Below, piece by piece: positions 16,265-53,482 of a stretch of DNA of 64,000 nt. A model generated the notes under the pieces. The model was not told where the DNA came from and searched no databases. It worked only from the letters and a program-made list of their open reading frames with translations. This DNA comes from Lingula anatina (Eukaryota; Animalia; Brachiopoda): NCBI GenBank assembly GCA_051362555.1, contig CM120642.1:13888001-13952000 (forward strand), written 5' to 3'. The position numbers and the translations under genes are program-made. Numbering within the stretch: position 1 is the first letter of the stretch; each line of letters starts with the position of its first letter.

Positions 16265-19200
16265 TTCTCAGTATACGAAACACAAATGAAGATGAACCGC
16301 CAGATCCTCAGCTGATGCGATTGGACAATATGTTGATAGCAGAGGGGGTGGCAGGCCCTGAGAAGGGGGGTGGAGCAGGAGCTGCTGCCAGTGCATCAGC
16401 GGCAGCATCAGGGGGAGACAATGCTATTGAACATTCAGATTATAGGGCAAAACTGGCTCAAATTCGACAGATTTATCACACAGAGTTGGAGAAATATGAA
16501 CAGGTATGTGCAGATAAAGTTTTTCTGAAACATCTGTTTTGGAAGAAATGTTGTATTGAGGATGGATTTATCAGAATGAACTTAATAAGTATTTTTATGT
16601 GCCCTTAATTCAAATATTATTGATTCAGATTTTTATCTCTTTGTACAAACAGTTCATTATCTGTAAATACACCTGCAGTAGTTAATTGATTTAATATTGA
16701 TAAAAATGTAAAATCATTTATGCATTTGATTACCAGAATTTTTTTAACCCCAAACACATGCAATGTTTTTATCTCGGAAGGCTTGTAATGAATTCACAAC
16801 ACACGTGGTGAATCTACTACGAGAACAGAGTCGAACCCGTCCTATTGCCCCCAAAGAAATTGAGCGGATGGTTAGCATTATTCGTAAGAAGTTTTCCGCC
16901 ATAGAAATGCAGCTCAAGCAGAGCACGTGTGAAGCTGTCATGATACTGAGGTCACGGTTTCTGGATGCAAGGTAGGTTCATGCTACAGGGACTGCTAAAC
17001 CTTGGCAGAAATTCCTCCATTCCCAGCAGAATTTTTGTCAGAGCTCGGGAATCGTCGTTTTAATCAGAGCACCGCCTGTGAGAGAAATATTGCATTATTT
17101 TGATGTATGGGGAGAGGGAATTTTAAAAAGAACTAAATCATGATTTCCCTGGGGTGGAAATAATAAGTTTGCATGATTGATTTTATTAGATTAACAGGGA
17201 AAAGATCGCAGAAAAGTGATAGTTAGCTAAAAGAACTTTTTTTACTTTTTTTCTTTTCTTTTTTCAAGTTCGACAGTGTGCGTTGAGAATCGTTAGTAGT
17301 ACAGAGTATGTTTGTTCTTGAGTGTGAAAGCCTTAATATGGTCTTATCATGTAATGTTCCCTGACTGGATAGTAAAGGTCTCGTGACTGGTTAAGGATGG
17401 GATACTGTGCCAGTGACACTAACTGAAAGGGATTAGACTTAACTTACCAAGACTTTGCCTGAATATTATGAAATAAAAAGTTAACCAAGAATCGTATAAA
17501 AGAATTTATTTTCAATTATCATTTCCTTTTTGTTGTTATAATTGTCGTTGTTGTTGTTGATGATGTATTTTTTGTTTTTGTTTTTGCTTTAATTTAGGAT
17601 GATGATGTCTATAATTAACTGTGTTGGCCCAATCACCTAACAGACCCTGTTCATTCTAATGGCATTAAAAAAACTCTCTATACCCATTTCATTTGAGGAA
17701 ATATAGTTTAAATTCTGCACCCCCTAAACAAAGTAAGTCTAACCCATGCCAGCCTGTCCTTGAAAATATATTTTAAAACATTTCCTCCATTATTTTTGAT
17801 GACATAAAACAAAGACAACTTTGTTGACTTCGCAAGACCAGGAATGCAGCGGGGCACTCCGTGCTTGCTTTTAGAAGCATGACATGATTATTTTATCGTG
17901 GTGTGCTGACATATCGTGTGAAGTACAGGCTTGAAATTGTAATAGAAATCTCATAAAAAATTGACATATCTTGTTGAAGAAATTTTGCTAAATGGGATGA
18001 TGAATTATTGAGAAGAAATTCCCAAAGGGAGGATGACAGCAGCTGTTTCACAAAGAACGTCACTGAGTAAATACTCTAATGACGAAGTACAAAGTGGAGA
18101 CAATCTGGCAGTTTTATTGGAGTTTGATTGTTAACAAGGGGAGTTTTTACATTCTTAATTTATTTGTTTTTCTTTATATATTTTTCTTGGAAAGTTGGTT
18201 TGGTATATTTCTTTTCTAATATGGAGTAGCATTAGAATATCCAATAGATTATAGTATGGAATCTCAATTGAATCAGATTTCAGGTAAAACAAATTTAATT
18301 TGATGATGATTTGCTGCCAACTGTTTGTCTTCTCTGGTAATGACTGGCAGTCGTTTTTCAATTGTTATATGCCCACTCCAAATAAGTTTGTTCAGACAAG
18401 TGCTATTTTAAGCCCAAATGTATATGAACTTCAATCATCAGATCACTAGGGGGGTACTAGAGGGGGGGGTTAGATGTCTAAGGGGTATAGGTTGCAAGGG
18501 GGGGTGTTCACAGAGCACATTTGATGACTTTTATATAAATGACTGGTAAATCTTACAAGCCCTCTCATGTCAGAAATCAGTTCAATTTCTGGTCAAAATA
18601 AGTCTTGTGTGAACTGGCTTATGGTGGACCACTTTGACTAGGACTGTAAACCTGAAATGAATTCTTTGACTTGTTGACTTTTTTTGTCATGGATCAAAAG
18701 CTATGCTGCGACCCCATTTAATTGCTGAAAACAGCAGCAAATTAGCTTGGTTCCCCTTGGGGATGTCTCCATATCCAGAGGAAGGAATGATATGGGATTT
18801 CTGGGGTTTGTTTGATGTTTCTGTACAAGCCTATTACTAAGGGTGCAGATACTTATTGCAGAAAAGAGCACATGTGCAGGTTGTGGGTGAATACCATGTC
18901 TTTCTGTCACAGCGGTTAAAAAAAAAATGTATAGCAGCGTATGCTAATGCTGGTGTGCCAGGGAACAATTAAGTGAGAGCTTACCGCTGGTGGGACCATT
19001 GACCCTGTATAGAACTGCCTTTACATGCCACATTCACCAGTAGTTCCATTTTTCTTCCAAGCACATCACAACAGATTGAATTTTGAAAAAAAAAAAACTG
19101 GTCTCTAGCTTGCATTTTAAATATTTTTCAAACGTCTTAAATTATTTTCTTTTCTATAAAAATTATTAATTTTTTAAAAAGTTATATTTGGTTCATTCAG

Positions 19201-22200: not shown

Positions 22201-23907
22201 AGTTATTTATTTATTTAATCAGCACAGTGTGCACTGGATATAATACATTTAAAATATCTTATTGTTTTGTTGACAAAAAAAAATTAAAATATGTTAAACA
22301 CTGGAGTGTACAAACAGTGAGGCTGAATGGAAGTACCCAACTTGTTTTTTTGGTAGTTATGTATCAGGAACAACTCTGATTTTTTGGGGAAGGTTAGTGA
22401 ATGTTTGTTTGGATATATTCAAGTAGGATAGGTAAATGTTGACTTGTGGGTGTGTATGTTTAAACTTATGTTAGTGGCACAGACAAGTGACCAGCTATTC
22501 AAGTCCACACGGGCTAGTCTGGTTAGTTTACAGTAATGGGACAGTCATTATTTGCTCATTATATTGTTTTCTGTGCTATTTATATGGAGTGGACTGTGCC
22601 TTATTGCTAGCAGCATGCACGTTTATGTTGTCAGAAGAAAAATGAATCAGTTGTTATAATACATGTCACTTGGCCGTGAGGGAGTCACTTCAAGGTTAGA
22701 ATGTTTGCTACACCGGTAATTTTTTTTTTTTTTTTGTAAATTTAAACAACTAGTAGAGACATATCATACATTTGCACCCTGTCATTAAGATAACAATTGC
22801 AGTTTTGGTACATTTGAAGTTGTTTCTGGAGAATAATGAAATCGGGCAAAAACCATTTAAAGATATTTGAATTAACTTTGTTTGACTAGAATGAATTCTG
22901 TCCTTCAATCAAAATATGAAACTCATAGGGAACTAATTTCTGTATTAAAATAAAGGACTAATTTCTGTATTAAAATAAAGCATTTAAGTGTGTCGCATTT
23001 TAAATATTTAAATTACATAATCATGAATTGAGGATCAGGCATGGGTGCTTTTAATTGTCATTCAATTGTGTTTTAAAATCTTTGATCAAGAAAATATATT
23101 GGTGTTCTAATCATAAAGTAAGGTGAATATAACACGTGAAATCTAACACAAAATATCTGAAGTAATACTAATCTGTTTCATGGAGTATTTCTAGTCGACA
23201 ATTACCTTGCTGTTCTTGTTAACTGGAAGTTTCAAACATAGGCCAGCAAAAAGCTTCTGACCAGATTTCAACGTTTTTATATTTTTCTTTTCTATTCTTT
23301 TCTAGGCGCAAGAGACGTAACTTCAGCAAACAGGCATCTGAAATTCTGAATGAGTATTTTTACGCCCACTTAAGCAACCCATACCCATCAGAAGAAGCCA
23401 AAGAGGAATTGGCAAGGAAGTGCGGCATCACAGTGTCCCAGGTAACTATTATTTATTGTAAATGTATTTGGGTTATTTTCTACAAACAATTTTGAGATTT
23501 TACTCACTCAGGTTTTAAATTGTTATACATATTTTGTGAGACTCAACTTTATTTCTTTAACATAATTTTTTTCATTCCAAAAAGTTTTTATTTCATTAAA
23601 AAAAAATCTCTTCCAAGTTTTGACATCATTTATGTTCTGAATCATCATTGAGATAAGCTTTTGCACATTTATTAATATATTATTTAAATGTAATAAATGA
23701 GCTTACTGGAAACACACTAGCCTGAATTCGGTTTTAGTCAAGTAAATTTTAGCTTTCTCAAAATTATGTTTAAAAATATGAATTAAAGCAGCGAGGAACA
23801 GCTAACATTTATTGTCAAGGAATTAACTAGTAGAAAATTTGAATGCTGTTGTTAGTCAAGCTTCAATTTTGTACGTAAATAAATGTAGTTAATGAAATTG
23901 CTACACC

Positions 23908-23962
<55 letters not shown>

Positions 23963-24779
23963 AAAACAAGGACTAAAAGATTTTAAGACATTTTAACTCA
24001 TTTAATTAATTTGGGGTATCAGAATCACATTATTTATACAAAATATGTTTAATATTATCACTTTACTAATATCAGTTCCAGCAACATCTAGCTCAGTGCA
24101 GGGCATCATCCAAGGCCAATATATAGACTGAGATTAATTTCTTTTTCCAGAGTTCTTAAACAAATTGTCCTCATGTTGATGTTTCTAGGTTTCTAATTGG
24201 TTCGGAAACAAGAGAATCCGATACAAGAAAAATATCGGGAAAGCCCAAGAGGAAGCAAACCTATACGCTGCCAAAACGGCTGCAGCAGCTTCTCAGGGTG
24301 GAGTTCATGAAGGTAAGCCATTTCTCGGGTCATTTATGTCTTCCTGCTTTATACCCTAGGTTTGCAATTGGTTTGGTAACAAACGTATCCGTTACAAGAG
24401 AAACACACAGAAGGAACAGGAAGACATCCGTTTACATGGCGTTAAGGCTGCTACTGCAGCAGCTATGCAAGGGCCCAGTCAAGGTATGTCAGAGAATCGC
24501 AAAAAAAGAAAAAAAAATGGGTTGGACTTTTTACCTCCATGGAGAGACAGTGTCGTCTGCCCGCTGCTTCTGACATTGCAAGCTTAGGGTATATTTTCTC
24601 ACAAGTGACTAAATCTTTTATATTTCGACTCTCTGTGTAATCCTCATCTTTTATCTCTGTCCCTGTTATACTAAATAGATAGAAAACAATCAAACATTTA
24701 AGGTAAGTGTTAGATATGTGTGGTAACTATACTGCCAATATCATTGCGAATCTCCTTCACTGCATGTGTGCGCGCACGT

Positions 24780-25398: not shown

Positions 25399-28300
25399 CT
25401 GAAAAGTACATGTAATTTTTGTCTTCTTACATTATTCCTGTTTAGGCTACATGCCCCAAGGTCAGCTGGGTTCCTACATGAACCTCAATGGAGATAACTA
25501 TCAGGCAGACTCAGTTGGAGCAAATGTACAATCACAGGTAAGATCAGGTGTTTCACTGAGGCAAGAATTGAAGTCAGACCAACATTAAATAATGCATTTA
25601 TTGCAGCAACAGATGACCAGAGTACACTGAGGGGCACCTACAGGGTCACTTGCCTATGAATGTATATTAAAATCATGTGACCGGCTACTCTGGTCATCTG
25701 GTGACTACAGATGGGCAATATTCTGGAGAAGGTTGACCTGTTTTGAATGTGCATTTGATATAGAAAATTGATGAAATTCAAACAACTCCACTATAAGTTT
25801 ATATAAGTGGCAAATTTGAAGTATTCCAAGGATTGAGGATATTTGATTGATCACCAGGCTGCCAATGGAAAAGATTGCTTGATGTTGGTATTGGCTTGAA
25901 GATGGATACCTTGGTTGCCATAGCAACACAATTTAATGTATTACTGTGATGGACAGATCAAAGGGGAATTGACAAGATTGGCAGGTCAATTTAGAAGATG
26001 GTGTTCTTGCGACTATGGCTTCCAATGAAAACAAATGTGCAATTCCATTTCCTGGAGGTCACCCTTGAATTTCCGTTCTAGATTTGGTCGGCATTCATAT
26101 CTTCATTTGTTCCATCGCAAATTATCCTGAAAGTAAAAAACTACATTGCAACTTCTTTAACACTGTTTAAGTGGAAATTTTGGGCTTTCATTGGTTTTGA
26201 ATCAATTTGGTACTTGTAAGGATCATTAAACAAAAAATCATAAAGATATGCCATATTTAAAGGGTAAAGGATTATTTACCAAATTTTATTTTCTGTACGA
26301 CTCCATGCATTTGTGCTGAATTCCATTATATTTGGTTAAACACTTTCTTTTCCTAAATCTCCCACAATCAGATTTTCAGACAGTATTCACACATGCTGCC
26401 AAAGCAAGTCTTAAATGTTATAAATGGCTTAAGGTGTTTTCTGTTAGCAAGATTAATTTTATTCTAGCTGTCTTTGCAAATCTCAGGTGACTCTGGTTTG
26501 AAATTCTGTATACACAATAGAAGTTTAAAGTTATTCCATCAATTTTAGAAAGAGATTTTCAGTTCAGTGAGCAGCAATCAACACAGATTTTATTATTGTT
26601 ATTATTATGTAATATATGTAGAGTGATATGCTGACAATTATCACTATGGAAACAATGCTCTGATTGTGACTTTTTAGTGACATAGCCTGTCTAGAGAAGG
26701 TAATTATGGTTGCTTTAGCAGAATTTTTTTGCAGAGTTATCATATTATACAAAAGATTGTTTTGGGAACAGTTGCATAAATATTTGAACAAAAAATTTGA
26801 AAATCAGTTAAGAGTAATGGCTGACTACTGTAGGCGTTCCAGTCATTCCTTATAGACAACATTTTCTTTCACCAATCCCATATACTTTGTTTTCATTCCT
26901 GTTTAGAGAGTCATTTCGATTACTAAATAGAAAATTTTAACTCCGAGCTTTAGAATAGGCAGAAAATGTTTTCCACATGAAATATGCATTAAATGCTGAC
27001 AGAATCAGTATTATGTTACATCAAATTTGTCTCCGTAAAAGTAAGGGACCCTTGAAAAATTCTTCCCTAATTTTTGTACTTTTACATTTTTAACCTCCAT
27101 CAAAGTCCCACCCTCCCACTAAAGTGAAGCGTTTATTCTCTTCCGTAGGTGAACTCCTTGCGTCATGTCATTAATCAGACAGGGGGATATCAAGACAGTA
27201 CCTCCTATGACATGCAGGTACAGTAACTATAGAAACCAGTTGTATCATGTGCTGCCTAGACAGGCAAGTGCTGCCATCTATGTTCAGTTTGTCACTGCAG
27301 GCAGTGTAATAAGCACCAAGAGTGAACACAGGGCACTTTTGATTAAAAATGAGAACCTCTGGATATGAATACAGTGGTTAGATATTGTATATGGTATTGT
27401 GGTTGTGAGAGGGCCAGAAGGTGACTTTTTTGTGACTGGTTCAATCTCTGATTTTTTTTTCCCCTTCTTTGTAGTGAGGTGCAAAGTACTAATTTTTCAC
27501 TCAAATTATAGTTTCGACAAACGGTATCTGAACTGATGTAAACTTATGTACTATGGTTTTCTCTGATATGGTATCAGTAAACCATACTGTAGTTAAAACT
27601 GTTCTGATTACATTATCAAAATGATTTTGGATATTTTTTTTACTTAAGAAATCATAATGTATGGTTTTAAAACCACATAAGAAAAGAAAATCACCTTTTC
27701 TTCAGATACTGTGTTGCAAATATGAATTGTAATTTTCTCCTTCAAATTAATCACTGAAGAAGCAACTGTGGCTTCCTTTTCTGTGTGTGTTTCAATAATC
27801 ACAACTGAGCCATCATTCGGTTTAACATCAGAATATCTCTGCCTAAAAACTTTCTACTGTCTCCCTGTGTGACTTGACTCGAAATCATTTATGCCTGTCC
27901 ACTTTGCGTGACCTGACATTCCCACTGGTTGTTTACACTAAAGCTTTTTTCAAGAAGAGACCCTTGTGTCTTTATTTGTGTTCTGCAGTGTGTCACAAGA
28001 GCATTGTTTCCATAGGTCAATTTCTATGAAGCAAACTTTCTTACTACTGTCCATGCACATCGTAAACTCACTTGAAAAAGAAGAGACACTTTAATTACAG
28101 GTATTTTATAAGTACATTTTTTCATGATTGTCAGAATTCATTTGAAAACTTACTTGCTTTGCCAGCTGTGGGTTACTGCCATATTGAAATTCTGTTTTGA
28201 ACACTTTAAGAACTTGTTCCTTGAATCTCTCTCTAACACCTTTATATAAAAAAAAAGAAAATAAGACTGGATTCCCAGCCCTAGATCGATCTAACAGGAT

Positions 28301-31300
28301 TGGTCCATCTCCACAGGGTCCCTCGCAAAATTGCTTTCAGCCCAAGCGGCTTAGATGTCTGGGACGGCCACTAAAGCTGCTAAACGATAGTTAATTACCC
28401 TCTATCAGTCTCAGCAGGCATGACAGACATCTAAGCTGACCAAGGTAATTGCAATTAAGCGAGAATCCACTCGGAGATTGTTCGATCCAAAGTTAGTACG
28501 ATAGTCTCTGGGAATGGTCTCTTAGATGAAAATGATGAGATGCCAGACACTTATTCAGAAACCCACATAGTGCAGATTGTAAGCAGTGATAACTGTTCTG
28601 CCCAAGAGTATTGCAAACTTTAGCAATAAGCTTATATTCTTGATTTTTACAAATAGATTAAAAAAGAACTTGATACCAGTTCTGTTGTAAACTTTTACGA
28701 TATGACAAGATAAACTCAGAATTCTATATATAACAAGTTGGGCCATGTTATTGTAATCTTCTGAAAAAAAGTATGGCTTAGACATGTTTGTCTTTTATCC
28801 ACATTTCAAATTGCAATTTTGAATTTGTCTTCAAAATTGAAGTGCTTGAAAACTGAACACCTTTCAAAGCATTAATTATGAGAGTGTTTTAAAACCTAGC
28901 CTCTGCTGTTCAAAGGTGTTATTTTCCTGTTTCTCTACCCTGTACTTTAGTTTTTATTTTCTCCACCAGGTGTCAGGCATGCATCGTGGGTATGGTCACC
29001 ACACCAGTAGTAGCCCCCCTGATATGGTAGGTTACACGTGAGGGGATGTCAGTACTGGGTAGACTTTAAAAAGACTTCTATAAGTGAGATGTTGACATAA
29101 TGTCTCTCTAAACCATTGTGTGAAATTCTTTTAATGGAATAGATATTTACAAAATGTCTCTGTCATCCCTGATGGCACATTTCAGATTGTTTGGTCACAA
29201 AAGTTTCAGTTCTCATCTTGTGACCACTTACTGAACAGTGCCATCTACAGGTGAAATTGTATACTTGCCTGTTTGAGGCTTTGCATGATATTTTGGAAGT
29301 GAAATATTTGTTGTAATATTTTGAGAATAGACCTCTGAGGGGTTGTCTCTTCTTTTGTTTAATATGCCAGTTAGAGCTATAAAACTGCCAATGCAGTTTA
29401 CTGGACCCTTAAAGGGGTAGTGTATATCATTTTAAGTGTTCCCATGTAGTTTTATTACAGTTATGTTAGTGGAGGAAATTTTATAGTGGAAAGTTGTTAA
29501 ATTTAACACCAGGCAAAGAAGTATTTACTCAGCTGGGTATTTTGATATTTAACAATTCTCATGTGTATCTCGAGATCCAGTAATGCAGCCTTAGTTGTAG
29601 ATTTACTTATTCCCAACATCTGCAATTATGTTTTCTAAACTTACTCTTTACTGAGAATGTCTCATGATTCAGAAATAATTCATAGTAGAAATTACAAAAG
29701 TGTATTGGACAGATTGCATCAGATGGATACAGTGTTTGCAGTTTAGATGACAGAAAACTTGTGGGACCATGGAAAAGAAGCTCCTCAAACATTTGTAGAA
29801 AACTGGAAAAACAAATGTGGAACTCTTGCTTCTGGTCACAGGCCAGACTTTTGTTCTGGCAATCAGAAACAGTGACTTCTTTCATGAAAGTGTAATAAGG
29901 AACAAGCAAATTGATGAAAAGCCGGGTTGTTCAAAATTGAATAAGCATTTATGTCAGAAATCTGTTCTGTTAAACAATGTCATTGTTTATCTGTTGTCAC
30001 TGGATAACATTTGTCTGATAACATTTTTTTTTTCAAGAGAGCATTCACATCGAGAAGAGCCGAGGTCTAGCAAGGCCGAGACCTAAATATGGCAGCTCTT
30101 CTCGATGTGAATGCTCTCCAAGTTAATGTTGCAAGTTAAGTAATGTAGGCAGTAAAGACTCCATAATTATGCACCTGAGGCAATTATTGGCTTCATAGAT
30201 TTGCTGGAGAGGATGTGGTCATGCAGGAGAAGTAAAAATATAAAATCATATTCAAACTCCATTGTTAAGGGAGGAGCAAGAATTATAGAAGATGGCAAGC
30301 ACAATACCAAAACATGCATGCTTTGCTAAGCAAGTAAAAAACAACAGGATTTTTGCATCAGTAGTGACCTATTTAAGAATCTGTGTCCTCTTGGCTTGAC
30401 TGAAGAAACTTTCTTCATAAATAACACAACTTACACAAGTAAAACACCAGTCCAGTGGATAAAGCCAACAGTACTATCGAACTGTTTGTAGGATCTTGTT
30501 TTCCTTCCTGCAATGTTTGTAAAATGACAATTGATATAAAACCATACTTTCAGGGTATAACAGTGGGTAATTCAAAAAGAAATGTATCATTTCTCAGGAA
30601 GCTTACTGCTGCTTCTTTTTGAAAGACTTTACAGACATTTATGATATTGTGTACCAAAAATGTTTTTACAGGTACATGTTTTGCCTCCCAGAGACATCAT
30701 CAAAAACAAGAACTCTTAGTCATTGCCTTTTTAAAACTTGAGAAGAATTATTTTTGTAAAACATGGTCATACCAAAATGAGGTAGATTTTACAATACCAG
30801 TTGTTGTTTTGCCTTTGAAAAGGAAGTGGTTTCTTTTTGTAGAATTAGTGAGTTTAAGTGGTGTAATGTTTCAAACTAAGGGCAATATTTTATCGTACAT
30901 TTTTGTTAAAAGCAAGATGCCATCTGGTAGAGAGAGAGAAAGAGAAAACGAATTGATGGATATGATTATATAACTTGTTTGTAGATACTTTGTTAGTGTC
31001 CCAACATAAAGGTACGGGTACAAGACTGGTACCTTAATTATACCATTAATTACTTTGTCACTGCAAAGTTTTTGATGTAAAGAGTTAAACTACAAGTTTG
31101 ATTAAAGACCTAAGTGTGACTGCGCCTATATTTCTTGCCCTTGAAACTATTCAGTACTGTTTCGTAAATTAATGTTTTTGAGTGGCGAACAGAAGTGCCC
31201 CTAAACTGTAAATGTAAATTCAACTTGAAGGAAGTCTTATGTGTATTAAGTCAGTTCTAAACTGTAGTGTTATATTTTTGAAAGTGTTGATATTTTTTGG

Positions 31301-33510
31301 TTAAGTATTATTTTCTGAAGTTAGGTTTTTGTCCTACAGCATTTGTAACTTTATAAACAAGTGAGTGGGTTTTGAATATATAGTGATATCAGTTAAATTG
31401 ATACTTCACATGTATATCTAAGCCTTGGTCCATTCAGTGAGCTACTGACAAAGCAAGCAAACATAAATCAACTCTAGTTTTCAAGATGTTACCTTAGTTC
31501 ATATAATAATTACTCAACATTTCTTATGAAAAATCCTTTATAAAAAAGACCAAAGAGTAAAAGGCTTGTAGCTTGCTGTGTTGGACAGACTTTGTGAAAA
31601 CTGGTTTTTAAAGCCCGGGTTTTGGTTGCACAAAAGAAGTTGAATTAAAAGTTGAGCTCATTTTTTTTCTTAATATTTTAACCTGATTTGACCTTAGATA
31701 AATCTTGGTTTTCCTAAATGGGCATTTTGGGTCTTCATTACAAAAAGTTTTAGCTGGGATTGAAGAACAAAAATTTCAGAAGTTGAGACCAAGTTTTGTC
31801 CAAGTGACAACATATTATGTGGACATTTCTCAAAAGAAACAAACCATTTGTGAAATTATCATCTCAGTCTTTCTTAAGAGATGTAATTAACTTAGGGTAT
31901 ATTTGGGTATTCATGTCAAAGTCATGAATTTTGTGATGTCAATTTTGTTAAATGTGTTCTATTGTTTTACACTGATTTTGTCTTTATGATCATTTATAGT
32001 AATTTACTAACACTGTGGAGCGTCTCATATTTAGCTGAACATGTTTTTGTAGTCAGATCATGGTTAAGGCATTTTTAGATTTATTCTGTATGAATCATAT
32101 GTTAGAAATACCATACAGCACCTTAGTACAATGTGCAGGATTTTAGAAAATCTCATTTTTGTTGAAGTAAACTGTCAGCAACTGGTCTTACTGTCATAAA
32201 AATATTTTACAAGTGTAACCAGTTTTCATTATCACTTTTGTAAACTTTTTGCATGTGTTATACAACACATTTTATTTAAAGTGTGGATAATGACAGTGAC
32301 AACGTAGCAACTACAATTATATGCGAGTCAGTTTTTGGTGATTTAACCCAGAATTGATTATGTAAGCATTATAGCTTCATATGGCATGCAAAAAAAAATA
32401 TGTATAAATGACCTTTTCATTTTGTAACCACTGACTGTAATATCTGCTTATAAAGAGAAAGCATTCTTTCCCTTAATGTTACATTAGAGTTGTATGTATG
32501 TAATAATATGTATTGTAAGTTTCATGCCCTCATGGAACTAGAAATAAATTAAATGATATACACAAATTATTGAATGATTTTTATCACCTTTATATATGTA
32601 CCTACCTTCACTAACCTTCAACACTTTTATTTGCTTTTGTTGTTTGCTTTATTTATTGATTTATCACAATGCACCCTCAATGTCTACTTTGTGTATGTTA
32701 GCTCTTTTCGTTTCAGTAATCACACTATTGCAAACCTTTTTTCTTATTTCAATTATCCTTGTTTCATAATTTATACTAATTGTTCACAGATCTGCTTAGA
32801 GTTTGCACTTCAGACTAACAGAATGTAACAAATTATTATAATCCATTCAAACTTAATTTTATCCCGCCTTGCACATTTTTGCATATGACCTCGACCCTTG
32901 CCCTAAGCCTTTTTTCTCCTCTGTTGGCTTAAACCTACACTTCTTACATGTCTGCATGCAGATAAAAAAAAAAATCAATCCATAATATAAAGAAATGTGA
33001 TGTGATGGAAATAAATCCAAGTAATCATCAGGCATGCCATTTTCATCATCAACACAAAATTCTGTTTTTATCACCAGTGCATGGTTTGAAAGCTTTCAAG
33101 CTAGAAGCAGATCTGTTGAACAAATTTTTTAGGATTTTTGTGGGAAAAGGGTTTATTATTTTTGCTGAAGTGCATCATTCACTTTTGAGATTTTAATGCA
33201 TGAAATGTTTGGTTTCTCAAACACATTTGGTTGCCAAAATTGCACTGTATGGAATTTGTGCTTCTTGTAATAAAAAAAAAAAAGCAAGTAAGCAACTGAT
33301 TTTGCATGTCATGGCAAACTGAAAATGAACCAAAAGGATTGAAGGTCACATCACGTTTCTTTTTAGGGTTCAAGAGATGGAGGTAGTCGAACGACTTCAC
33401 CCGGAGGGGAGGACAGCAATAGTTTCCCAAACATTCATGATTTGAACAGCAATTCTGGAGATGGCAGTTACCATGATGATGAGCCCTCCAACAAAAGGCC
33501 TAAGGTCTAA
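16265..33510 (+). CDS. PBX: PBX/extradenticle TALE-class homeobox protein, 5'-partial (first exons not found, presumably upstream of the window)
   Basis: GT-AG exons in continuous frame: 16265-16503 ([36 protein letters not shown]...YEQ), 16781-16971 ([22 protein letters not shown]...RFLDAR), 23306-23441 ([45 protein letters not shown]), 24189-24312 or 24360-24483 (helix 3, [10 protein letters not shown]), 25446-25537 (..[18 protein letters not shown]), 27149-27217 ([14 protein letters not shown]..), 28970-29026 (or read-through to TGA at 29041), 33367-33510. The PBC domain and TALE PYP loop are diagnostic. Confidence 0.97.
24189..24312 (+). CDS. PBX: PBX homeodomain helix-3 exon, canonical copy A (mutually exclusive exon)
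   Basis: tttctag|GTT...GAA G|gtaagc; 124 nt, phase 0 to 1; [41 protein letters not shown]. Confidence 0.95.
24360..24483 (+). CDS. PBX: PBX homeodomain helix-3 exon, divergent duplicate copy B (mutually exclusive exon)
   Basis: ataccctag|GTT...CAA G|gtatgt; 124 nt, same phases as copy A, no stop; [41 protein letters not shown]. Confidence 0.88.
24781..24811. repeat. (CA)n microsatellite
   Basis: Read directly from sequence. Confidence 0.95.
25349..25398. repeat. (AAAT)n microsatellite
   Basis: Read directly from sequence. Confidence 0.95.
28265..28521. mobile_element. MITE family A copy (ATTCCCA...GATCGATC...TGGGAATG)
   Basis: Fold-back structure, similar to copies at 42.0-42.4 kb, 45.9 kb and 62.2 kb; TAA/TTA flanks. 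Confidence 0.75.
30037..30118. mobile_element. 82-bp mini-MITE hairpin
   Basis: Perfect 24-bp inverted repeat GAGAGCATTCACATCGAGAAGAGC, flanked by 3-bp direct repeat CAA (Harbinger-like TSD length). Confidence 0.75.
33367..33510 (+). CDS. PBX: Putative distal (alternative) last coding exon of PBX
   Basis: Polypyrimidine tract plus ttttag acceptor; phase 0 matches the donor ATG|gtaggt at 29026; open for 47 codons [16 protein letters not shown]...EPSNKRPKV* in a GC-richer patch within AT-rich DNA. Confidence 0.7.
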   Translation, partial: GSRDGGSRTTSPGGEDSNSFPNIHDLNSNSGDGSYHDDEPSNKRPKV

Positions 33511-36500: not shown

Positions 36501-37585
36501 TCATAACAATTTTCATAAAATAACAATGATTTATACATGTAGTACATTATTTGTATGTAATATATTGATAGAGAAATATTGTATTTTTCTGAAACATTTC
36601 AAATAAATGTTGCTTTGCTTTTAGTTGAATTTATAGGTGGGACTTGGATCATTTTGAACACTTTCTGGAGTTATTGGTTAAAAACATGATAAATTGGATA
36701 AAGGCATGGTGTAGAAAAACGAAATTTTGATTTCAAAGAGCATTCAACACTTCCTTACATAGATACTAATGCTACTTTGATCAAATGCAGATTCTGGCAT
36801 TGAAAAAAACTAGAAACAACTCATCAAATGGACAAGCATTGAAGATTGTTAATTTTCATTCATGCTGACCCTGCATGGGTAAACTTTACATCCTATATAA
36901 AAAGAAAACACCAAAGCAGGAAATTGTTTCGTTGACAATAGTATAATTCCCTGATCTAAGTAAGAGACCACATGAACTGAACACTGCCCGTTTGCAGTGC
37001 TTCTACTGTTGGCATTTAGTTTTATCAAGTCCGCTGTCATCACCAACACACTGACTATATTAAAAATCCAATACTTCACTTGTTTTACCTCTCACTCATT
37101 AATCTACACCCGTGGATTACTTCTAACTGTCAGCAACATAAAGGCGTTTTTGTGTCAAAACAAAGCCTATTTCTTATTAACAATATGACTTGCAGTTGCC
37201 ATGTTTAAAAGATTACCTTCCAAGTACTGTTCTGAAAAACTTCTGCAACTCATGACTGCACAAAGGTATATAATGTTAACAGATGAAGATAAATCAAATC
37301 GTTAAATATATATTTAAAACTGATGTGAAAGACTATGTTGCATGAAGTATTGAGTATGAATGAATTATTGAGTACGAATGAATTATGTTGAGAAAAAAAA
37401 ATTGAAAGTGCAAGCATAATCCATTTTAAGTATTGCACCAATAACTAGCCCCTCCAAAATTTGATTGTTAAAAAGTTACTCTGAATGTGACCAACCTGGA
37501 GTGTTACTTTGACACTAAAAGTGAATGCCTAAATGGGTTCCTGTACTGATGCAGTAACTTTATTCAAATGTTCCATCAGGAGTAT

Positions 37586-40500
37586 TTAAATATCATCTTT
37601 TATTTGAGATGCAGGAGTATTAAAGAAATTACCAGTGTGAGTAGAGACGCTTGATGTTAAAACAAGTTTGCATGCATCACACAGGCTTCCTATGTCACTG
37701 CCCCATCTCACAGCTTCAATCTTCCTATCTATGGCGCCCTGAGAATCACAGCCTGGCCAGCAGCATTCCACAAGGTGGGCTAGGCCATCTGGGCTGTTTT
37801 TCTTGGAAAATAATCTATAGGCTGGGGCAGTCTGAACCTGGTCCACAGCGCAATACCAATTCTCATCATCATCAGTAACTTCAATCAGTTCTCTAGAACA
37901 GTTTAAAAAATTATTGCCAGGAATTTTATTACCCTGGATTCCTTCTGTTGAGTTGAGATTAACACCCTGGTCTTCTGTAGATTCATACCAGTCATTCTTC
38001 TTACAAGTCGTGGTATATCTAGAAGTTACACCTGAGCAATTTTCATTTAAACCATCGCCATCATCATCATCATCATCCCAGGTTTCAAGTAATCCCCATT
38101 CTCCGTCTTTCCATTTCGTGTAAGCACCTTTACTGTCTTCTTGTGCTGCAACTGTTGCTGAGGCAGTATCAGCATCCCAATCTTCTTCCCAATTACACTG
38201 ATTCTGCTGATACTGTGAGTCCCAAGTCGGGTTGGAGGAGCACTGGTTATCTACAGTGTTAGAGTTCCCAACACCTATGTTGTCCTCTATGCATGAGTCA
38301 CTGTGAGATGACACAGAGCTCTCGGTGTCTGAATAACAGAAGTAATCCTCTAGATTCAGGGTGTGTGTTACTGCCGTCTCTGTAGCATTTAGACTTACGT
38401 CTGCTCCTTCAAGAACATCCCTGTAAAAAGAAAAGAAACTATCATTTGAAAATATTCCCAAGTAAATGGAATATAAATTCTATCATGTGGAAAACATGTC
38501 TCAAATCACATCACTTCTGTATTTCTTTTAATTTTATTCATTTTTATTTTCATTAGTTTAAGTTGTTTCCAGTCAGGTTAAATACGTTGGCTGTGGTGGA
38601 ATTATTGTTATCAGAGGGCCTAGTGAGATGGGTTGGATCAAGACACATTGCCTCAACTAAGAGCAAGACCTAATTTAGTCATGTGGACAACCCAACAAGC
38701 TTAAAAGTACTTTTACAGCATGATATTGGGAGAATTTTTTCAACTTAAAGAAAAAGAACACTTCAATACATCAGTATATTGGAAATCTTTTACCTTAAAA
38801 TGCCCATGTCTCCTCCACACAAATGTTTGACATCTGTGAACCTGGCCACAGCATCCAAAGGCACCTGCACAGTTACTGGCCTGGGACCATAAAATAGAGA
38901 TAAAATGATAAATTGATATCGGTGCAAAACACCCAAATTCAGCACATTTCAGTATTGTCTAATTCCAGCTGTTTGCTTCACTTTTTTGTGTTAAAACGAT
39001 AGGCGTTCAGAAATGGACCATCTCTTATCAATATCAGTTAAGTGATGTAAAAATAATAAGGCCTAATAGGTCAGGTTCCTAATAAAATGCAATCTGATCA
39101 ATGAATTAAGACAGTCACTGATCTCATAAATCTGCTAGTCTGGTAGTGTTGTCAGTCACAAATTTCTGGTACAATTTCAACCATTTGTAAAAACAGCAAG
39201 TTTCTTTTTCATGTACCTAATTTAGCATGCTTCAGTTGAGTTTCTGTCTAAATCTTTAGGTAAATATTGCTGCCAAAGCAGAATGATGACACATCCTCTG
39301 TTCCCAAAGTTGATAGTAATTTGAAAAAGAATGCCTCTCCATTCTCAGACGCATGTAATATCTAAAGAACACATCCTTTATAGCCTAATCACATGAAAAT
39401 TCTTTCAGATAAACTGAGACCAAGCAGACAATAAAATTGTGTTATCTAAAAATATAACCTACCCTCTATCTCCTAAGATATATTCATCTGCATCATCTCC
39501 ATGCTGTCTCTGATAAAGTACATTGGAATATGCCAATTCTTGGATACGCTTTGTGGCTGCAGCCAGAATCTGCTCCTCTATACTGCCCTCGGGTTGTTTG
39601 TATGGGAAAACATGCTCTGCTATCTAAACAAAAAATCATCGTGTAAAATGACACAATGCATGGAAAATGTTTAAGCATTGATATCCCAAAGAGGTTTATC
39701 ATTAACAACAAAAAGTTAACCTTTTAGGAACGTTACACATTACAACTAGCAGTAAATAATTCAGTCAACCTCTGTTTCTATTTCTATGCCAGTAAGTTTT
39801 TCTATTTTTCAAACATCAAGAGGCCATATCATAATAAAAGTAGAAAAATAAAACTTGAAATCTTTTCAAGTTGACATGCAGAATACTACCTATCCTATAT
39901 ATTTGTTTCCCAAACTTACAATGCTATAACACTGAATATCTTCAATATCATGTGCACCAGGCTTGCTATGGGGCAGTCTCTCAAATATTGCCAGCTGAGA
40001 ACAAAAACCTACATCAGTTCCCTCTGGTGGCTCACCAACACCACCAAACTCCACTGTGTATCCATGTAAACGAGCCAGATTGAGACACCTGAAATGCAAC
40101 AAAAATTTTTTGAAGATCTAACAGGGGATGTCATCAATATAAGGAATTGTTTTGTTGCAAAATGTAACTACTCATTTATAAGCATGATTCAACACAAAAA
40201 CAGATCAAGGCAAAAAAATAGAAATATTCCTAAACAATTATTTAAAATATAAATTTTTGTCTATATTTTAAGGTAATATTCAATTGTGGACACAGAAACT
40301 GACACACAGAGAGAAACAGCTTATAAAATTACTGCCATAACTTTCCCCCCAATTTTCCGGCTTTGAACATTTTCTATACTATCCTGTCTACACAAAAGGA
40401 AAGAAATCTTCAAATGATGAAAAGTCACATATTCATTGCAGTACTTTTGGCCAAGTATTATCAAATTCACACACAGGCACTACCACCTGGTTTTCTGCCT

Positions 40501-42831
40501 CATATGTTTGCATACCTATAAAGCCATATATTAATTGGGATATAAAAAGATTCTATTTAACAAACAACTGAAAGAAAGCCCAAGTTACCATGAGCTAAAC
40601 TCCTGTCTTGTCCACTCAAACTTGTGATCCCAGTGCCTCATACCAGAGAAGTCTGGGAACAGTACGTTGAACTCAGCATTTGGGGTTGTCATGACAACAA
40701 GCGCTGGCTTAACCTGGTTAAATATTACCTCTGTTGATCTTTCCAAAGTGTCTGACTCAAGATGTTCTATGCTAAAATGTAAATATTTTAAAAATCAGAT
40801 GGTTATTTAACATTTGCAAAATTTAGTGTCACTGCTGGCTCCAAACTAGAAGTTAAAAGTGAGGAGGGAAACCACCCCTATTTTCAGATGCGTACAGGGG
40901 GCAGCAGTGCAGAAGTCCAAGAAGCACAGTCATACAGAGAGTACAACTGTTACAGTAAGTAATGTCATCCCAACCAGGCTGTAAATTATGTAGCCTAAGT
41001 TAACAGATTTCTTGTTGTAGGATTTGTTTATTTTCTTTGCTTAAAGGGATAATAACTCTTCATATGAGATCTATATTTCACAATAAAAACATTGTAAGCA
41101 ACTCATAGAAATATAATATATTCTGTTTTACCACAAAAACGGCAGTTATAGCTATTATTCTGATATCTGAGCTTGTTATCAGACCACGTGACTTCCATAG
41201 ATGGCTATACTCTGTAATAGTCTCTTAAGAGATTATAACATAAAACTAAACTTTTTAGAAAAAAAAACAGGGACTAACTTTGAATGTAGAAATGGATTCG
41301 TTAACCATTGGTAAGTATGGGAAAATTGTTGTTTAATTCATTTTTTGGCCAAAACGAACAGTTAATTTCCCCGTTAACTTACACCTCAATTAATATCATT
41401 GCTTCAAACTCCAGTAATCTACTGTCATATGCTCCAATACTGCCACAGAACAGGCTTGTCTTGAGTGGTGTTGGCCTCTTGTGAACATAATCTCTCAAAC
41501 ATGGCTTTATTATGTATCTGTTTTGTTCCAGTAATGCTGCAAAATCATAAATAATAACAATTATTGTCAAAGATTCAGAAAAGTTCCTACTAATTTGGCA
41601 TTCTAACTCTAAAACATTTTTGCAATATATCTTAAGTATTTGAATTTTAAAGATGGTGTCCTTTAAAAGGCTGAGCTATCTGTTCCATACATTCTTTCTA
41701 ACAAAAATTGTTTTGCTCAAAATCAAAAGAACAGCTATTAACTGTTTATTACACGTCGTACTTACGTACAATAGTCAGAAATGTTACATATCCCTAGTCC
41801 TCTCCCCCCCCCCCCCCACCAAAAAAAAACAAAAACATTTTAATAGTTATTTTGTCTGAGATAAAAATACCTCGGTCTATATCAAGACCAGCTATGGACT
41901 CCAGCGATGGCACAGTGTTCTTCAAATGTCTCAGAAATTTACATTCGGCACACCCAATGTCAAGAACCTGAAAATATTTAAGACTCTGTGGTTCCTTACA
42001 ACTTAACAGCAAAAACATGTGTGGACCTTTCTTAGACCCCATTCCCAGAGATAAGATCGATCCAACTAGATCGACCTAACTCCCTGGGGTTCACGCTAAA
42101 TAGCTGTCAGCCAAGCGGGCACAAAAGTTAATTACCCCCTTAAAGCTAGTAGTAGGCGGGACGGACATTTCAGCCAGATTATCTGACAGTAATCTAGTGA
42201 GACTCCCCACGGGGATAGATCTATCTAAAATCTATGGGAATGCACCCTTAGACCCCATTCCCACATATTTTAGATCGATCTATCCCTGTGGGGAGTCTCA
42301 CTAGATTACTGTCAGATTAGCCGGATTAAGCTGACTGCAATTTAGCATGAATGGATGGATCGAACTAAATCTCTGGGAATGCACTCTTTAAGTACATATC
42401 TGAAAACATTTACAGGAGTGCTGGCACTATTTTCCGGTGCTTTTACAAAAACCCCACCTCACACCCAACCTTTGGCTTTCAATGTATTTGAATAGCATAG
42501 ACATTGATCATAGTCACCACATAAGTGAGTTTTGTAAAAAAATATCCAAGACTAATATTAAGTGAGGGTATAATGCAGAAGTATCGAATTTTCTTGTTAT
42601 CGTTACTTTTTTGTGTACATGTACTAGTACCTTTTTTATGTCCCTGTCTCTAAGAATTTCGGCGACGGCAAGATATCTTTGCCTGTATAAAGGAGGATCG
42701 AAAAGAGATCCTTCAGCCCTTTTCTCTCCATCTCCTGCTTCACTCGGGTTTGCACTCGGGTTTTCATTTTTAATATCATCTCCTACAAGGACCCCAGTCT
42801 CTTCTGAAATCAAAATCTCGAACTTACTCAT
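37586..42831 (-). CDS. HENMT1: Small RNA 2'-O-methyltransferase Hen1, 8 exons, about 628 aa
   Basis: Exons (minus strand): 42831-42631 (FDPPLYRQRY), 41967-41871 (VLDIGCAECKF, SAM motif), 41536-41383 (..ILIEV), 40771-40589 (IEHL..TTPNAEFN..RHWDHKFEWTRQEF), 40088-39920 (GYTVEFGGVG..GFCSQLAIF), 39623-39463, 38880-38794, 38420-37586. All junctions are GT-AG and phase-consistent. Confidence 0.95.
42032..42390. mobile_element. Two adjacent MITE family A copies in HENMT1 intron 1
   Basis: TTAGACCCCATTCCCA starts at 42032 and 42248; TGGGAATGCAC ends at about 42245 and 42385. Confidence 0.8.
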
Positions 42832-43290
42832 CTGGTACCCAGTGTTATTTTCGAAGTTTGCTCAGTGTAGATGGTTGGTAGGTCCTGAGGTTCGGGTATT
42901 CAACTTTTTTGAGAGATGGGGTTTGGTCTTATTATAATTCCGTGGTACGATATAATGTAATCGTAAAAAAAAACTTCACTTGACAGCGGACGCATGCTTC
43001 CCCTCCCCTGAGACGCCCAGACTCTTTGGTTGCTGAAGAGTGGAATGGAATATTTCATACAGATGTCAGAGTAAAAAAAAACTATCTAAATGTATTCGTA
43101 GTCTCAAAAGTGTAGAATATGGGAAACAAAATAAAAAATCTTGGCAATAAGAACGCTTGATAGTGTTTAATAACGTTTGCTCGTTCGCTCGTGCCTTTTA
43201 TGTATTCTCTCTTTTTGCTATAAACATATTTCCGGTGTAAACATCCGACTGTACATGCGCAATGATCTTGCCGGGAGAAAGTTCCTACAG
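42832..43290. promoter_or_regulatory. Putative bidirectional promoter HENMT1/ABHD14 plus non-coding first exon of ABHD14
   Basis: Divergent genes. CpG-richer segment with an ETS-like TTCCGG (about 43230) and NRF1-like CATGCGCA (about 43255). Strong donor CAG|gtgagt at 43290. Confidence 0.6.
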
Positions 43291-43742: not shown

Positions 43743-45073
43743 AAGCTTAATTTAAAGAGCGTAAAAGTTATCTTACACATGACCCTGTGGACTGAATTTT
43801 GAACCTGATGCTGCATATATATACAGTATACTATATAGTGCCAGGCAATGTGAATGTGTGAACATATTTATATACATATTTTATTAACTTCAAACTAAAT
43901 ATGTGGGCATATTGCTCAGGAAAGGCATGGCATATATTGTGACTAATTCTGTAAAACTGTTAAGTGTATGCAGAAGTCAGTACTAGAATACTGTAAGTCT
44001 AAGTAAATTGGATCAGCATATAGGTGTGAGAATCTTCAATATCAAATTGGCCAGGGTCTCACTGCATGTGACTAGTAAGTTGAATGGTACCGGTACATTT
44101 TTCAGCATTTTATATATGATAGTGCTTGGTTACTGATTGTCTTATACTTGCATAGGGAAATGGCATTTATAGCCAGAAAACACATTATTTTAGGGGTATT
44201 TAAATATACAAAAAGGTTGGTTTCTTAGTTTTAACTAAAAATTAAAATTAAAATTTGAATTGATAATAAAAGACCTGAAAGCTCGTTTTCCAGTTTACTA
44301 TTTATTGCTTTGATTAATCTGTGAATCAACAATTCAACAATATCATATGCCGTTGTGGTAATACATTTGATTACCATAAACCATAAAGATACCAGTCAGT
44401 GTGGCTTTGTGTATTGAAACTTGAATTATACTTCTTTTATCTATAGGATGTCACACTGTTGTTTGTCAATACATACATACCTGTAGAATAGAACTGAGTA
44501 CTAGTGCATCTGGTGTTTCATCCTGGAGGCTGTCACAGTAGAAAAGGTGTGTGGTGCAAGCAAAGTTTTGAAAGCTGATGTCTCTTTTTTTATCATCATT
44601 TAACTTTGGTAGCTGGGTTTTTTTTTTTTTTTTTTTGTAGTTAACTGTATGTTCCTGGCCAAGCTACAATTTAAATTTTCTCTGTCCTGAAAAATGATGA
44701 AAATAGATTTTTAAAAATACATGATTCAGCTGAAATGGACTTAAGTTAATATTATTATTGTTGTTGTTGTTCTATATAATTTCCACAAATGCCTTCCAAG
44801 TTACTGTACTACTGCTTTTTAAAGGCCCTTTCTTGTGTTTACTGGCCTGTCAATGTTTAGGAAGAAGGCTTGGTTAGAAATAGTTAGATGTGTGCTAATG
44901 TTATCTCTTTAATAGCAGTTGCATTTCACTCACTTTTTCTCAAGATACAGTCGACAGACACATTCACCGTGACATACTGACCTCATTTCACTTGATACAA
45001 GGTCACTAAGATTAGACTGGCATAATATCAGTATGCAAACACTGGAATATCTTACCTGTCCTTCTAGCTCCCC

Positions 45074-47621
45074 ATGTCTAGGCCAAAGAGTGGCTTGCTT
45101 GATATGAAATTCAACAGACTGGTGGCAATTTGTCTATTGCTGACCCTTGCGCTCATACTGTACCTGTATTTTGGGAGATCTAAGAAGATGGTGGATCCAC
45201 ATGCAACCTGGAAGACAGGGAGGGAATTTGAGAGTGTACCACAAGAGGCTTTGGACAAATCCAGAACTGTCACAGTTGACACCAGGACCATGACAGTCAG
45301 GGTTGGAGACAAGGTGAGAGTAGGATGGTGTCAAATTACATTTTATAACAATGGCATTCACAGCAGGTTTAACTGAGTGTCACGTACAAAGTAGATTTTC
45401 TTGGTATTAGTTTTCTAACTGTTATTCTAGCTAGCATAAGTGTGAATTTTGACTCAATATATGCGTAGATAAATTTTACTCTGTTTAATATATCAAGCAT
45501 ACAATTTACAATACTTGCATGTATGATGTAAACATTGTATAACATTGAATTTATTTTAGTCAAGCAGAGGAAAAATCCATTAAATACAAGATTTTGTTTT
45601 CTTTTGATCATCCTTATTGGTTTTTTACCTTTCATAAAGAAAATGTTTTATAAAGTAAAGATCAATATATGTTCTGTTGTGTCGTAGGAAGCCAAGGTGT
45701 TTTATCGTGAGGCTATCCCAGAAGGCACTGCCAAGCTGTCAGTCCTTTTCCTCCATGGCATGAGGTTCAGTTCCAAGGACTGGAATGACATTGGGACACT
45801 GCAGATAACTGCTGCCTTAGGCTATAGAGCTGTGGCCGTTGATCTCCCAGGTGATAATTGGTACTCATACTGGTTTTAAGGTGGATTTACAGTCAGGTTA
45901 GGTTGACCTTCCTTTGGCCCCATTCCCATAGATACCATCATTCTATGTGGATCGACCCAACTCTGTGGGGACTCTTGCTGACTGTCATTCAGTAAAACTG
46001 ATTCCACTCAGCCAGAGTCCCCACGGTGTTGAGTTGATCCAAGTAGACCACTGGTGTCCATTGGAATGGAGTCTTAGAAGTAATTTATTCGAAGATCATG
46101 TCCTTATGGGTTTGAAAAAGTTATTCTATTTCGTGAACATATGAAGCCAATCTAATGGCAGTATACTAATATAAGTGTTATAATTGCAGTGGGCAAAGGG
46201 ACCTGATTCTGGTGGTCTGATTATAGAGCTCATGGTCAAAGTTGCGTTGACCCATGTTGATTGGCATTCACCTTGAAACAGTTTCCAAGCCTTTGATGCT
46301 ATATGCTGAATCTAACCAATATTTCAGGGATGTAAAAGCCTGAAGTGCAGAGAATAGGAGGGCAGAAGTACCTTTCAGTACCCCAGAGATGAAAGGGGCA
46401 AAATATCCCTTTAATATAATCAAATAAGACCAGCTGTCAATATTTGGGTGCTATAAAAATACTAATCATCAGTGATATGACAGTATCACTGATTGATCCA
46501 AGGTTTGGCTGGGCAATGGAAGGGGGGGTGGCAAGCTTAAGATATTTCAGGTTCATTCACTGTCATCTGCCCCTCCCCCTCCTTCCCCTCCACCAGGCAC
46601 CACTGTTGTAAATTATCTACTAGAATGTTTCTTTACCCTATCTGTAGTCCTTTAAATTTTCTGATTAGTTTATTTACTTTCCAGGATTTGGACAGAGCCA
46701 CAAATCCGAGGCTTCCTCTCAAGCAGTCCCCTTTATGAAAGCGCTGATTACTGAGTTAGATTTGCAGCGTCCAGTGCTGGTCAGCCCATCCATGAGTGGA
46801 CAGTTTGCCATTCCATATCTAATGGAGAATCCCGTCAAAGCACAGGAACGTCTCCGTGGTTACATCCCTGTGGCTCCAGTAAATACTGGGGCTTTTACAC
46901 ATTCAGAGTACCACAGAGTAGAGGTAAGACTGGGCAAGGAGGTTGATGAGGTTCATTCACCTCCTTGAGCTGGGTGAGATTATTTCAAGGAGGGGGGGCA
47001 TTGCTGTTGATTATGGAAAACAAATGGTGCCACACAGATGTACTTGTACTAGAATGCTCGGAATTTGGGAGGAAAAACTACCTTACACTCATCAAAGTTT
47101 ATGTGATATTTTTCAAATCATCCAAATCCATAACAATTTCTCTGCTTCTCAAAATAAAAAAAAAGTCATGTTTATACTTAAAAGGAAGTTTGTAAATTTA
47201 TTTTAACATTGAAATTGGTCTTCTTGCAAAATCTTATATTCTGGAATAAACCCAAATTTACTAAAATATATATATATTTTAACATCCCTTTCAGATTTTA
47301 TAAACAAAACCATTTGGGAGAAATGGCAAAACCATTTAATTCAAATTTGTTGAGCAATCACTGTAATTATTTATGTAATATATTAAATCTACAAAATAAA
47401 GTAGAAGTTTCATTTATCATGGTACCTCTTTCTTTCAGGTGCCCACCATGATAGTCTATGGGTCCAAGGACACCTCACTGGGCCTGACCTCACTGAATGA
47501 CCTGCGGAACATCAGAAATAGTGCTATATTCAAAATAGAGGATGCAGGGCACCCTTGTTATTTAGATAAACCAGAGAAATGGCATGAGCTGTTGTACAAC
47601 TTCCTAGCTGCCATTGAGTGA
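45074..47621 (+). CDS. ABHD14A: ABHD14A/B-like alpha/beta hydrolase with N-terminal membrane anchor, 4 coding exons, 274 aa
   Basis: Exons 45074-45313, 45688-45850 ([24 protein letters not shown]), 46685-46923 (VSPSMSG nucleophile motif, YIPVAPV), 47439-47621 ([17 protein letters not shown]). The hydrophobic [18 protein letters not shown] near the N-terminus favours the 14A type. Confidence 0.92.
45916..46076. mobile_element. MITE family A-related copy in ABHD14 intron
   Basis: CCCCATTCCCA...GGATCGACCCAAC-TCTGTGGGGACTC / GAGTCCCCACGG..GTTGATCC..TGGAATGGAGTC inverted arms. Confidence 0.65.
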
Positions 47622-53200: not shown

Positions 53201-53306
53201 TTTGTGCTTATTAATCTGAGGCTCGAGTAAGAAAACGCCTGATCCGTTTTTTGAGGCCTTGGTCCGGAGATCATGATATGAGGACCCTCAGGAATGTCGT
53301 TGATGG

Positions 53307-53462: not shown

Positions 53463-53482
53463 TTCCCACTACCTCATGCATA

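Follow-up and report, generated by a model that had tools for sequence, protein, structure and literature searches.

Mutually exclusive tandem exons for helices 3 and 4 of the homeodomain in the PBX gene of the brachiopod Lingula anatina

The DNA analysed here (the window) is a stretch of 64,000 nucleotides from Lingula anatina (assembly GCA_051362555.1, contig CM120642.1, positions 13,888,001 to 13,952,000 of the forward strand), and holds, on its plus strand, the part of the L. anatina PBX gene that begins midway through the PBC domain and ends with the stop codon; the 5' exons are not contained in the window, and tblastn with the RefSeq isoforms gave no match within it to the N-terminal 92 residues. 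PBX/Exd proteins are general Hox cofactors, with an extended homeodomain that is among the least-changed protein stretches in animals. Six RefSeq isoforms of Lingula PBX exist, which use one or other of two adjacent homeodomain exons: X1 and X3-X6 contain exon A, and X2 (XP_013405201.1, our P0003) contains exon B, the translation of which it matches at 100%. Both forms give Pfam matches to PBC (E 3e-82), Homeobox_KN (E 1-2e-16) and Homeodomain (E 2-6e-15), i.e. the PBC domain and TALE homeodomain that together identify a PBX/Exd (PBC-class TALE) protein.

The first PBX exon in the window (16265-16503; tblastn and splice sites) encodes part of the PBC domain, and is followed by an exon for the end of PBC-B (16781-16971; tblastn, with loose ends of RNA reads before 23306 running on into it). 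The N-terminal arm, helices 1 and 2, the TALE loop and the start of helix 3 of the homeodomain are encoded by the exon at 23306-23441 (tblastn, RNA depth and joints), which is single in the window, where no second helix-1/2 exon was found. Next come exon A (24189-24312; tblastn, RNA joints), for a canonical helix 3, helix 4 and a short tail, an intron of 47 nt (24313-24359) with branch-point-like adenines at intron nucleotides 20 and 24, and exon B (24360-24483; RNA joints, RefSeq X2), for a near-canonical helix 3 and a diverged helix 4. A common downstream exon (25446-25537, phase 1 to 0; tblastn, RNA joints) leads to two cassette exons of the C-terminal region, at 27149-27217 (missing from RefSeq X5 and X6) and 28970-29026 (missing from X4 and X6), both placed by tblastn and by RNA loose ends at 25539, and to the last coding exon with its stop codon (33367-33510; tblastn). 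One residue in this last exon is Asp where the RefSeq proteins show Glu, so that the window probably represents another haplotype or assembly than that of RefSeq.

Elsewhere in the window, exons of a methyltransferase-like gene lie on the minus strand at about 37000-42900 (weak Pfam match to Methyltransf_23, E 0.074), which from its motifs we take to be HEN1-like, and exons of an alpha/beta hydrolase, presumably ABHD14-like, lie on the plus strand at about 45070-46970 (Abhydrolase_6, E 0.0005). An open frame of 115 codons on the minus strand (58885-59229) has no Pfam match. Inverted repeats that are long (up to 104 bp) and nearly perfect occur at 42181-42317, 53305-53937, 55308-56533 and 62167-63733, and a unit of about 524 bases is tandemly repeated near 62-64 kb; together these are probably small mobile elements.

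Exons A and B are each 124 nt long, preceded by AG and followed by GT, and run from phase 0 to phase 1; adjacent, equal in length and phase and bounded by canonical splice sites, they have the properties of homologous mutually exclusive exons, and the tandem pattern describing the pair matches once in the window and in 0/100 shuffles. An earlier note, made from the sequence alone, had described the exon lengths, phases, splice sites and 47-nt spacing, which proved exact on re-reading, as did its translations and its list of synonymous differences; its statement that joint inclusion shifts the frame is likewise correct, joining of A to B bringing a TAA stop into frame at 24377-24379. Skipping of both copies leads to a TGA stop at 25479-25481. 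In a gapless alignment 72 of the 124 nucleotides are identical and 18 of the 41 codons differ in residue, with pS saturated at 0.87 over the 41 codons. Codons 1-15 combine a low pN (0.08) with saturated pS (0.76), on which pattern of substitution the helix-3 part of B is held by selection; the purifying selection that the note had proposed for B is upheld for this part. Nine exonic variants were present in RNA reads, one of them in B, and all nine are synonymous.

Past codon 15, pN climbs to 0.39 (codons 16-30) and 0.47 (codons 31-41), and no orthologue of B was found among the proteins searched (28 matches, the best 120 of 2046 and the best 150 of 244 representatives), the best non-Lingula matches examined having at most four of B's 12 changes in common; the divergence of B's helix 4 could therefore reflect relaxed constraint. 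Both observations favour a reading in which B is an old, tolerated duplicate, where selection would act on helix 3 alone because a broken homeodomain would do harm, and helix 4 would have drifted to leave a weak form with no role of its own. We regard this as rather unlikely, and it has to contend with the survival of the open frame, the exact length and both splice sites of B past synonymous saturation.

Use of the two copies was assessed in eight of the nine listed raw-read RNA runs, from 6-30% of the reads of each. The upstream exon is joined to A in 66 reads and to B in 37 (23441>24360), and the downstream exon is joined from A in 118 and from B in 31 (24483>25446), giving 252 junction reads in total, 184 for A and 68 for B (27%; 36% at the upstream and 21% at the downstream joint). 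B is used in all eight runs, and neither an A-to-B joint nor one that skips both copies is listed at three or more reads per run in any of them; across these 252 reads each copy is spliced to both common flanks. A and B are used mutually exclusively in mRNA, and constitute an old exon pair that is expressed. The earlier note had anticipated two isoforms with one copy per transcript and had proposed comparing reads at the joints of A and of B with both flanks; the counts at all four flank joints bear out this expectation. The splicing of B in every run, and its inclusion in a RefSeq model, eliminate a pseudo-exon or an assembly artefact, and retention of the spacer as a main product is not seen, since depth in the spacer bin (6.9, 2.8, 11.0 and 11.0 in four runs) is near that expected from exon A alone (4.5, 3.6, 11.0 and 9.2), a coarse comparison that would accommodate a little retention. 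The share of B ranges from 8 to 43% by run, a spread that hints only weakly at regulation (p = 0.018 when reads are counted, p = 0.10 for distinct read starts) and would also suit a duplicate that is tolerated; a 27% share of junction reads is less easily reconciled with such a duplicate.

The earlier note had called exclusion obligate and ascribed it to steric interference across the spacer. Mutually exclusive use and the frameshift both stand, but the steric cause is not singled out: the intron, at 47 nt, is within the range given for steric interference (<50 nt) in PMC5740500, and the locus thus has both a donor-to-branch-point distance under 50 nt and, through the stop at 24377, a frameshift on joint inclusion, either of which would serve as an exclusion mechanism. 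The early stop in an A+B transcript could expose it to nonsense-mediated decay, so that its absence from mRNA fits steric exclusion and decay alike. In the mechanism that we propose, the spacer, with its donor no more than about 24-39 nt from the branch point, would enforce exclusion, and any products with a shifted frame would in addition be removed by decay. Incompatibility of U2 and U12 splice sites was rejected, as none of the donors (GTAACT, GTAAGC and GTATGT) fits the U12 donor consensus.

A candidate element for the choice between the copies is a predicted RNA helix in which positions 24350-24368 pair without interruption with 24575-24593, an intron segment 92 nt 3' of exon B, over 19 bp (17 Watson-Crick and 2 G-U). 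The 5' arm runs across the AG of the B acceptor into the exon, where it takes in the first three codons, including the Cys codon, and the 3' arm pairs with this acceptor at a computed -27.1 kcal/mol as against -8.7 kcal/mol with the acceptor of A. The predicted probability of the helix is 0.66-0.95 across three folding contexts; a helix of this length is found at 1/17 splice sites of Lingula PBX (next best 14 bp), and none of 100 shuffles reaches 19 bp. In the real DNA of the window, 12 complex helices of at least 19 bp form within 1 kb and cover 72 of 3716 AG dinucleotides (1.9%), which implies a chance of a few per cent that the helix at the B acceptor is a coincidence. The acceptor AG of B is predicted to be paired (0.84-0.91) also without the 3' arm, folding of the whole region is no better than that of shuffles (z -0.83), and a search of Rfam gave five weak matches, all far under gathering scores. 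Over the acceptors of the multi-copy PBX loci described below (L021, L098-L100) no comparable helix was found, the longest being 11 bp. A long-range stem that includes an acceptor balances two acceptors in Drosophila Atrophin (Raker et al. 2009, PMC2724269), and resembles the Lingula stem; the Atrophin stem, however, is conserved and was tested by compensatory mutation, whereas that of Lingula is predicted from one genome. We put the chance that the predicted stem has a real role in the choice of B at about even; if so, it would hold B at the level of a minor isoform.

At the protein level, positions 47-57 are identical in A and B, which share the PBX/Exd helix-3 signature of G50, N51, R53 and R55, and only two changes, S46C and K58R, fall within positions 45-59. 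The earlier note was right that G50, N51 and R55 are unchanged, but its description of a swapped recognition helix is hardly borne out, since the real swap concerns helix 4 and the tail; nor is Cys46 new to PBX, as it had suggested, for 11 of the 77 distinct PBX segments retrieved, including that of copepod Exd, have it (R58 is present in 9/77). These data also bear on the possibility that B shifts DNA-sequence preference, in the manner of the mutually exclusive FOXP1 exons 18/18b (FOXP1-ES; PMC11701043). The swapped exon does contain most of the recognition helix, and both S46C and K58R lie within it, but with positions 47-57 unaltered the change of base-contacting residues that characterises FOXP1-ES is absent here, and both substitutions occur in ordinary PBX proteins, so that we consider this explanation very improbable.

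It is over positions 59-73 that the copies part, B matching A at 6/15, which substantiates the note's claim of a changed C-terminal helix; only 2 of the 77 distinct PBX segments are as far from A over this stretch as B is. B residues E63, I67, R68 and G71 occur in 0/77 of these segments and Q61, D66 and H70 in 1/77 each, although E63 and R68 are also carried by P0457, a protein from a later search. K62, Q64, E65, L69 and K73, residues of the helix face, are retained in B, which tells against unhindered drift of helix 4 in a copy without a role. AlphaFold models (one best model for each isoform, from the same 44-row alignment and folded without DNA) differ in this region, a break at residue 297 separating helix 3 from helix 4 in isoform A and a single helix running from 280 to 318 in isoform B. 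Compared with the extended homeodomain of PBX1/Exd (PDB 1B72, 1PUF, 4UUS), isoform A is alike over all 73 residues and both isoforms share the three-helix core, but isoform B is predicted to lack the folded-back helix 4. On PBX1 1b72_B, A superposes over 73/73 residues (Z 12.5, rmsd 1.9) and B over 64/73 (Z 9.5, rmsd 2.6); on 1puf_B the values are 73 residues with rmsd 2.8 for A and 66 with rmsd 4.3 for B; and the three-helix core (4cyc_B, 58 residues) is matched equally well by the two isoforms (Z 10.3-10.4, rmsd 0.8-0.9). Confidence in the helix-3/4 part is 74-80 (pLDDT), and the folded-back fourth helix is thus predicted for A and not for B in DNA-free models of a helix that folds on DNA.

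In three sources (PMC4786136; bioRxiv 10.64898/2026.06.03.729869; PMC4391845), the PBX1 segment after helix 3 is described as unfolded and as turning into a fourth helix on DNA, which enhances binding of the Hox or partner peptide at a distant pocket; a Hox cooperativity motif is treated in PMC6426973. From this role of helix 4, together with its predicted loss in B, we infer that B would occupy unchanged sites but less tightly, and that its coupling to Hox would be reduced; the differing cofactor or affinity properties proposed in the earlier note stand as a prediction. Alternatively, contact with DNA may make helix 4 fold back in B as well, and its changed residues may form a new surface for another partner or a modification, in which case B would be altered in function and not loosened. 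The segment does stay helical in the B model at similar confidence (pLDDT over residues 291-310 of 79/74 vs 80/77), and net charge over 57-73 is equal in A and B; nevertheless, positions 63, 67, 70 and 71, which hardly vary and are otherwise small or hydrophobic, are now E, I, H and G, Gly61 of the turn is now Gln, and the B model does not fold back, and we consider such a surface improbable. The explanation that we prefer, with confidence a little above even, is that Lingula PBX splices one of two old tandem helix-3/4 exons, and that the DNA-reading residues are retained in B while the folded-back helix 4 is predicted to be lost, with likely weaker DNA binding and Hox coupling. With its PBC domains intact, B would remain able to bind MEIS/PREP and to recognise the same DNA sites, and would thereby tune or compete with canonical PBX.

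Alternative helix-3/4 exons of PBX occur in other protostomes, in four cases as read from annotated proteins. Among those of oysters, isoform pairs differ solely in this exon (P0406/P0407, P0249/P0243), and two gene models (P0246, P0247) contain both copies in tandem; in the nemertean Tubulanus, X1 (P0174; one of five isoforms read) differs from X3 only in the helix-3/4 exon, with helix 4 strongly changed; one model of the annelid Ridgeia (P0071) has both copies; and in the spider Parasteatoda two isoforms differ from three others by two residues of this exon. At the DNA level, L021 has one helix-1/2 exon followed by three helix-3/4 copies, and L100, L099 and L098, which belong to one contig, have the same three copies in the same order and the start of a fourth. 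The downstream exons of these loci resemble those of Ridgeia and Capitella, so that both genomes look annelid, and the copies differ between them by dN of 0, 0.01 and 0.04 at pS of 0.47, 0.74 and 0.90 (30 codons), a constraint on alternative copies (dN 0.01-0.04 at pS 0.74-0.90) that argues against simple tolerance of such duplicates. These multi-copy cases amount to 1/23 loci flanked by 1 kb or more at each end and one contig among the short loci, from at least 118 loci, and a close tandem like that of Lingula (spacing 142-202 nt) has 0 matches in metagenome contigs. Only one helix-3/4 form is present among the fetched isoforms of Haliotis (17), scallops (14), Gigantopelta (8), Sinanodonta (9), Littorina (16), Pomacea (10), Babylonia and kin (8), hemichordates, sea urchins and a scorpion, annotation gaps being possible in all of these.

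The alternative helix-3/4 copies of different phyla have no derived residues in common, which leaves a single ancient duplication common to all phyla unsupported, and which could also be expected of duplicates that drift because they are tolerated; a faint D-(I/V)-x-L likeness of B to the nemertean copy is too small to count. Moreover, A and B do not differ in length, and no gap is needed to align them across the variable tail, whereas tail length differs in the nemertean and oyster copies. Taken together, these features make repeated duplication of the helix-3/4 exon likelier than one event in an ancient ancestor, and the A/B duplication would have arisen within the brachiopod line, as one of several PBX homeodomain-exon duplications in protostomes.

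The helix-1/2 exon is also multiplied in places, namely in Pomacea and Babylonia (three versions each), Littorina, Biomphalaria, Mytilus, Owenia and Panulirus, the duplicated or triplicated exons of these snails, mussels, Owenia and lobster being seen in P0066, P0067, P0068, P0069, P0070, P0114, P0145, P0216, P0217 and P0232. One version, with T-K-N after the Phe of the arm and an altered N-terminal arm region, is shared by several gastropods and Owenia, and may be an old shared copy or the result of convergence. Several further observations were made on the fetched sequences. The last 30 bases of L099 (reverse strand) hold the start of the fourth, more diverged helix-3 copy, with a good acceptor, Cys46 and Met47; the rest of this copy falls beyond the end of the locus. 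Between copies 1 and 2, a 26-nt intron block is 96% identical in L021 (6328-6353) and L099 (reverse strand 2-27) and can pair with acceptor regions (-21 and -18 kcal/mol), making it a candidate splicing control element; more conserved intron blocks precede copy 2. In L002, L014, L033, L035, L041, L052 and L077 the only helix-3 exon in the fetched DNA is of the Phe56/Gly63 type, which is the alternative copy in Ridgeia and L021, and these genes may be paralogues that each retained one exon version after gene duplication. Divergent PBX sequences L088, L105, P0536 and P0547 have R58, T60 and Q61 as in exon B with a near-canonical helix 4, a likeness that is likely to be convergence. Oysters, scallops, mussels and a freshwater mussel (P0068, P0078, P0096, P0138) have an extra optional exon that is in part a repeat of the 3' end of the PBC exon before it; this exon has no match in the Lingula window. 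In L030 a complete PBX homeobox unit is followed by another, which has diverged and runs into an early stop behind helix 3; this is a tandem gene duplication and not an exon duplication.

Among published systems, the nearest case is exon 9 of Capitella teleta Meis (Irimia et al. 2011, PMC3140891), likewise a tandem duplicated exon of a spiralian TALE-class homeobox gene with one copy used per transcript, and situated within the conserved 5' ten exons that encode the Meis domain and homeodomain; it differs in that the gene is Meis and not PBX, the copies have 5 substitutions compared with 18/41 in Lingula, and no function is proposed in the available text. FOXP1 exons 18/18b (PMC11701043) and TCF3 E12/E47 (PMC6120717) resemble the Lingula pair as mutually exclusive exons inside a DNA-binding domain that give two full-length isoforms. 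In FOXP1-ES, however, the DNA motif changes and cell-type control is proven (PMC11701043), unlike in Lingula PBX, where base-contacting residues are the same and an allosteric helix is what is predicted to change. Vertebrate PBX1a/PBX1b are splice isoforms from the same gene family, but arise by PTBP1-controlled skipping of exon 7, which is not a duplicated exon, leave helices 3-4 untouched, and in PBX1b cost the C-terminal 83 residues with the homeodomain retained (PMC11701043). The earlier note knew of no such switch in PBX; in the literature searched, which takes in few subscription journals, no account was found of PBX/Exd homeodomain exons that are duplicated or used mutually exclusively. 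The arrangement is not confined to this gene, and isoform B was already a RefSeq model; other protostomes have alternative copies of the exon. The exon pair is apparently an undescribed PBX case of a known mechanism, duplicated mutually exclusive exons.

More broadly, and as a tentative proposal that we think doubtful though conceivable, protostomes with a single PBX gene may have repeatedly diversified an ultra-conserved homeodomain through duplication of the two exons that encode it, and so hold a hidden repertoire of spliced homeodomains with two to four versions of each exon, one Lingula version removing the allosteric fourth helix under the gating of an RNA stem, such that splicing would toggle a Hox cofactor between cooperative and uncoupled states. 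The recurrence of alternative exons in brachiopod, nemertean, annelid, oyster and spider means that surveys counting one PBX per spiralian genome undercount homeodomain variants. If one gene does exchange the helix through which binding of DNA is coupled to that of Hox, natural helix-4 variants would be available for testing the allosteric model of PBX1, and splicing would be a direct control on Hox-PBX cooperativity.
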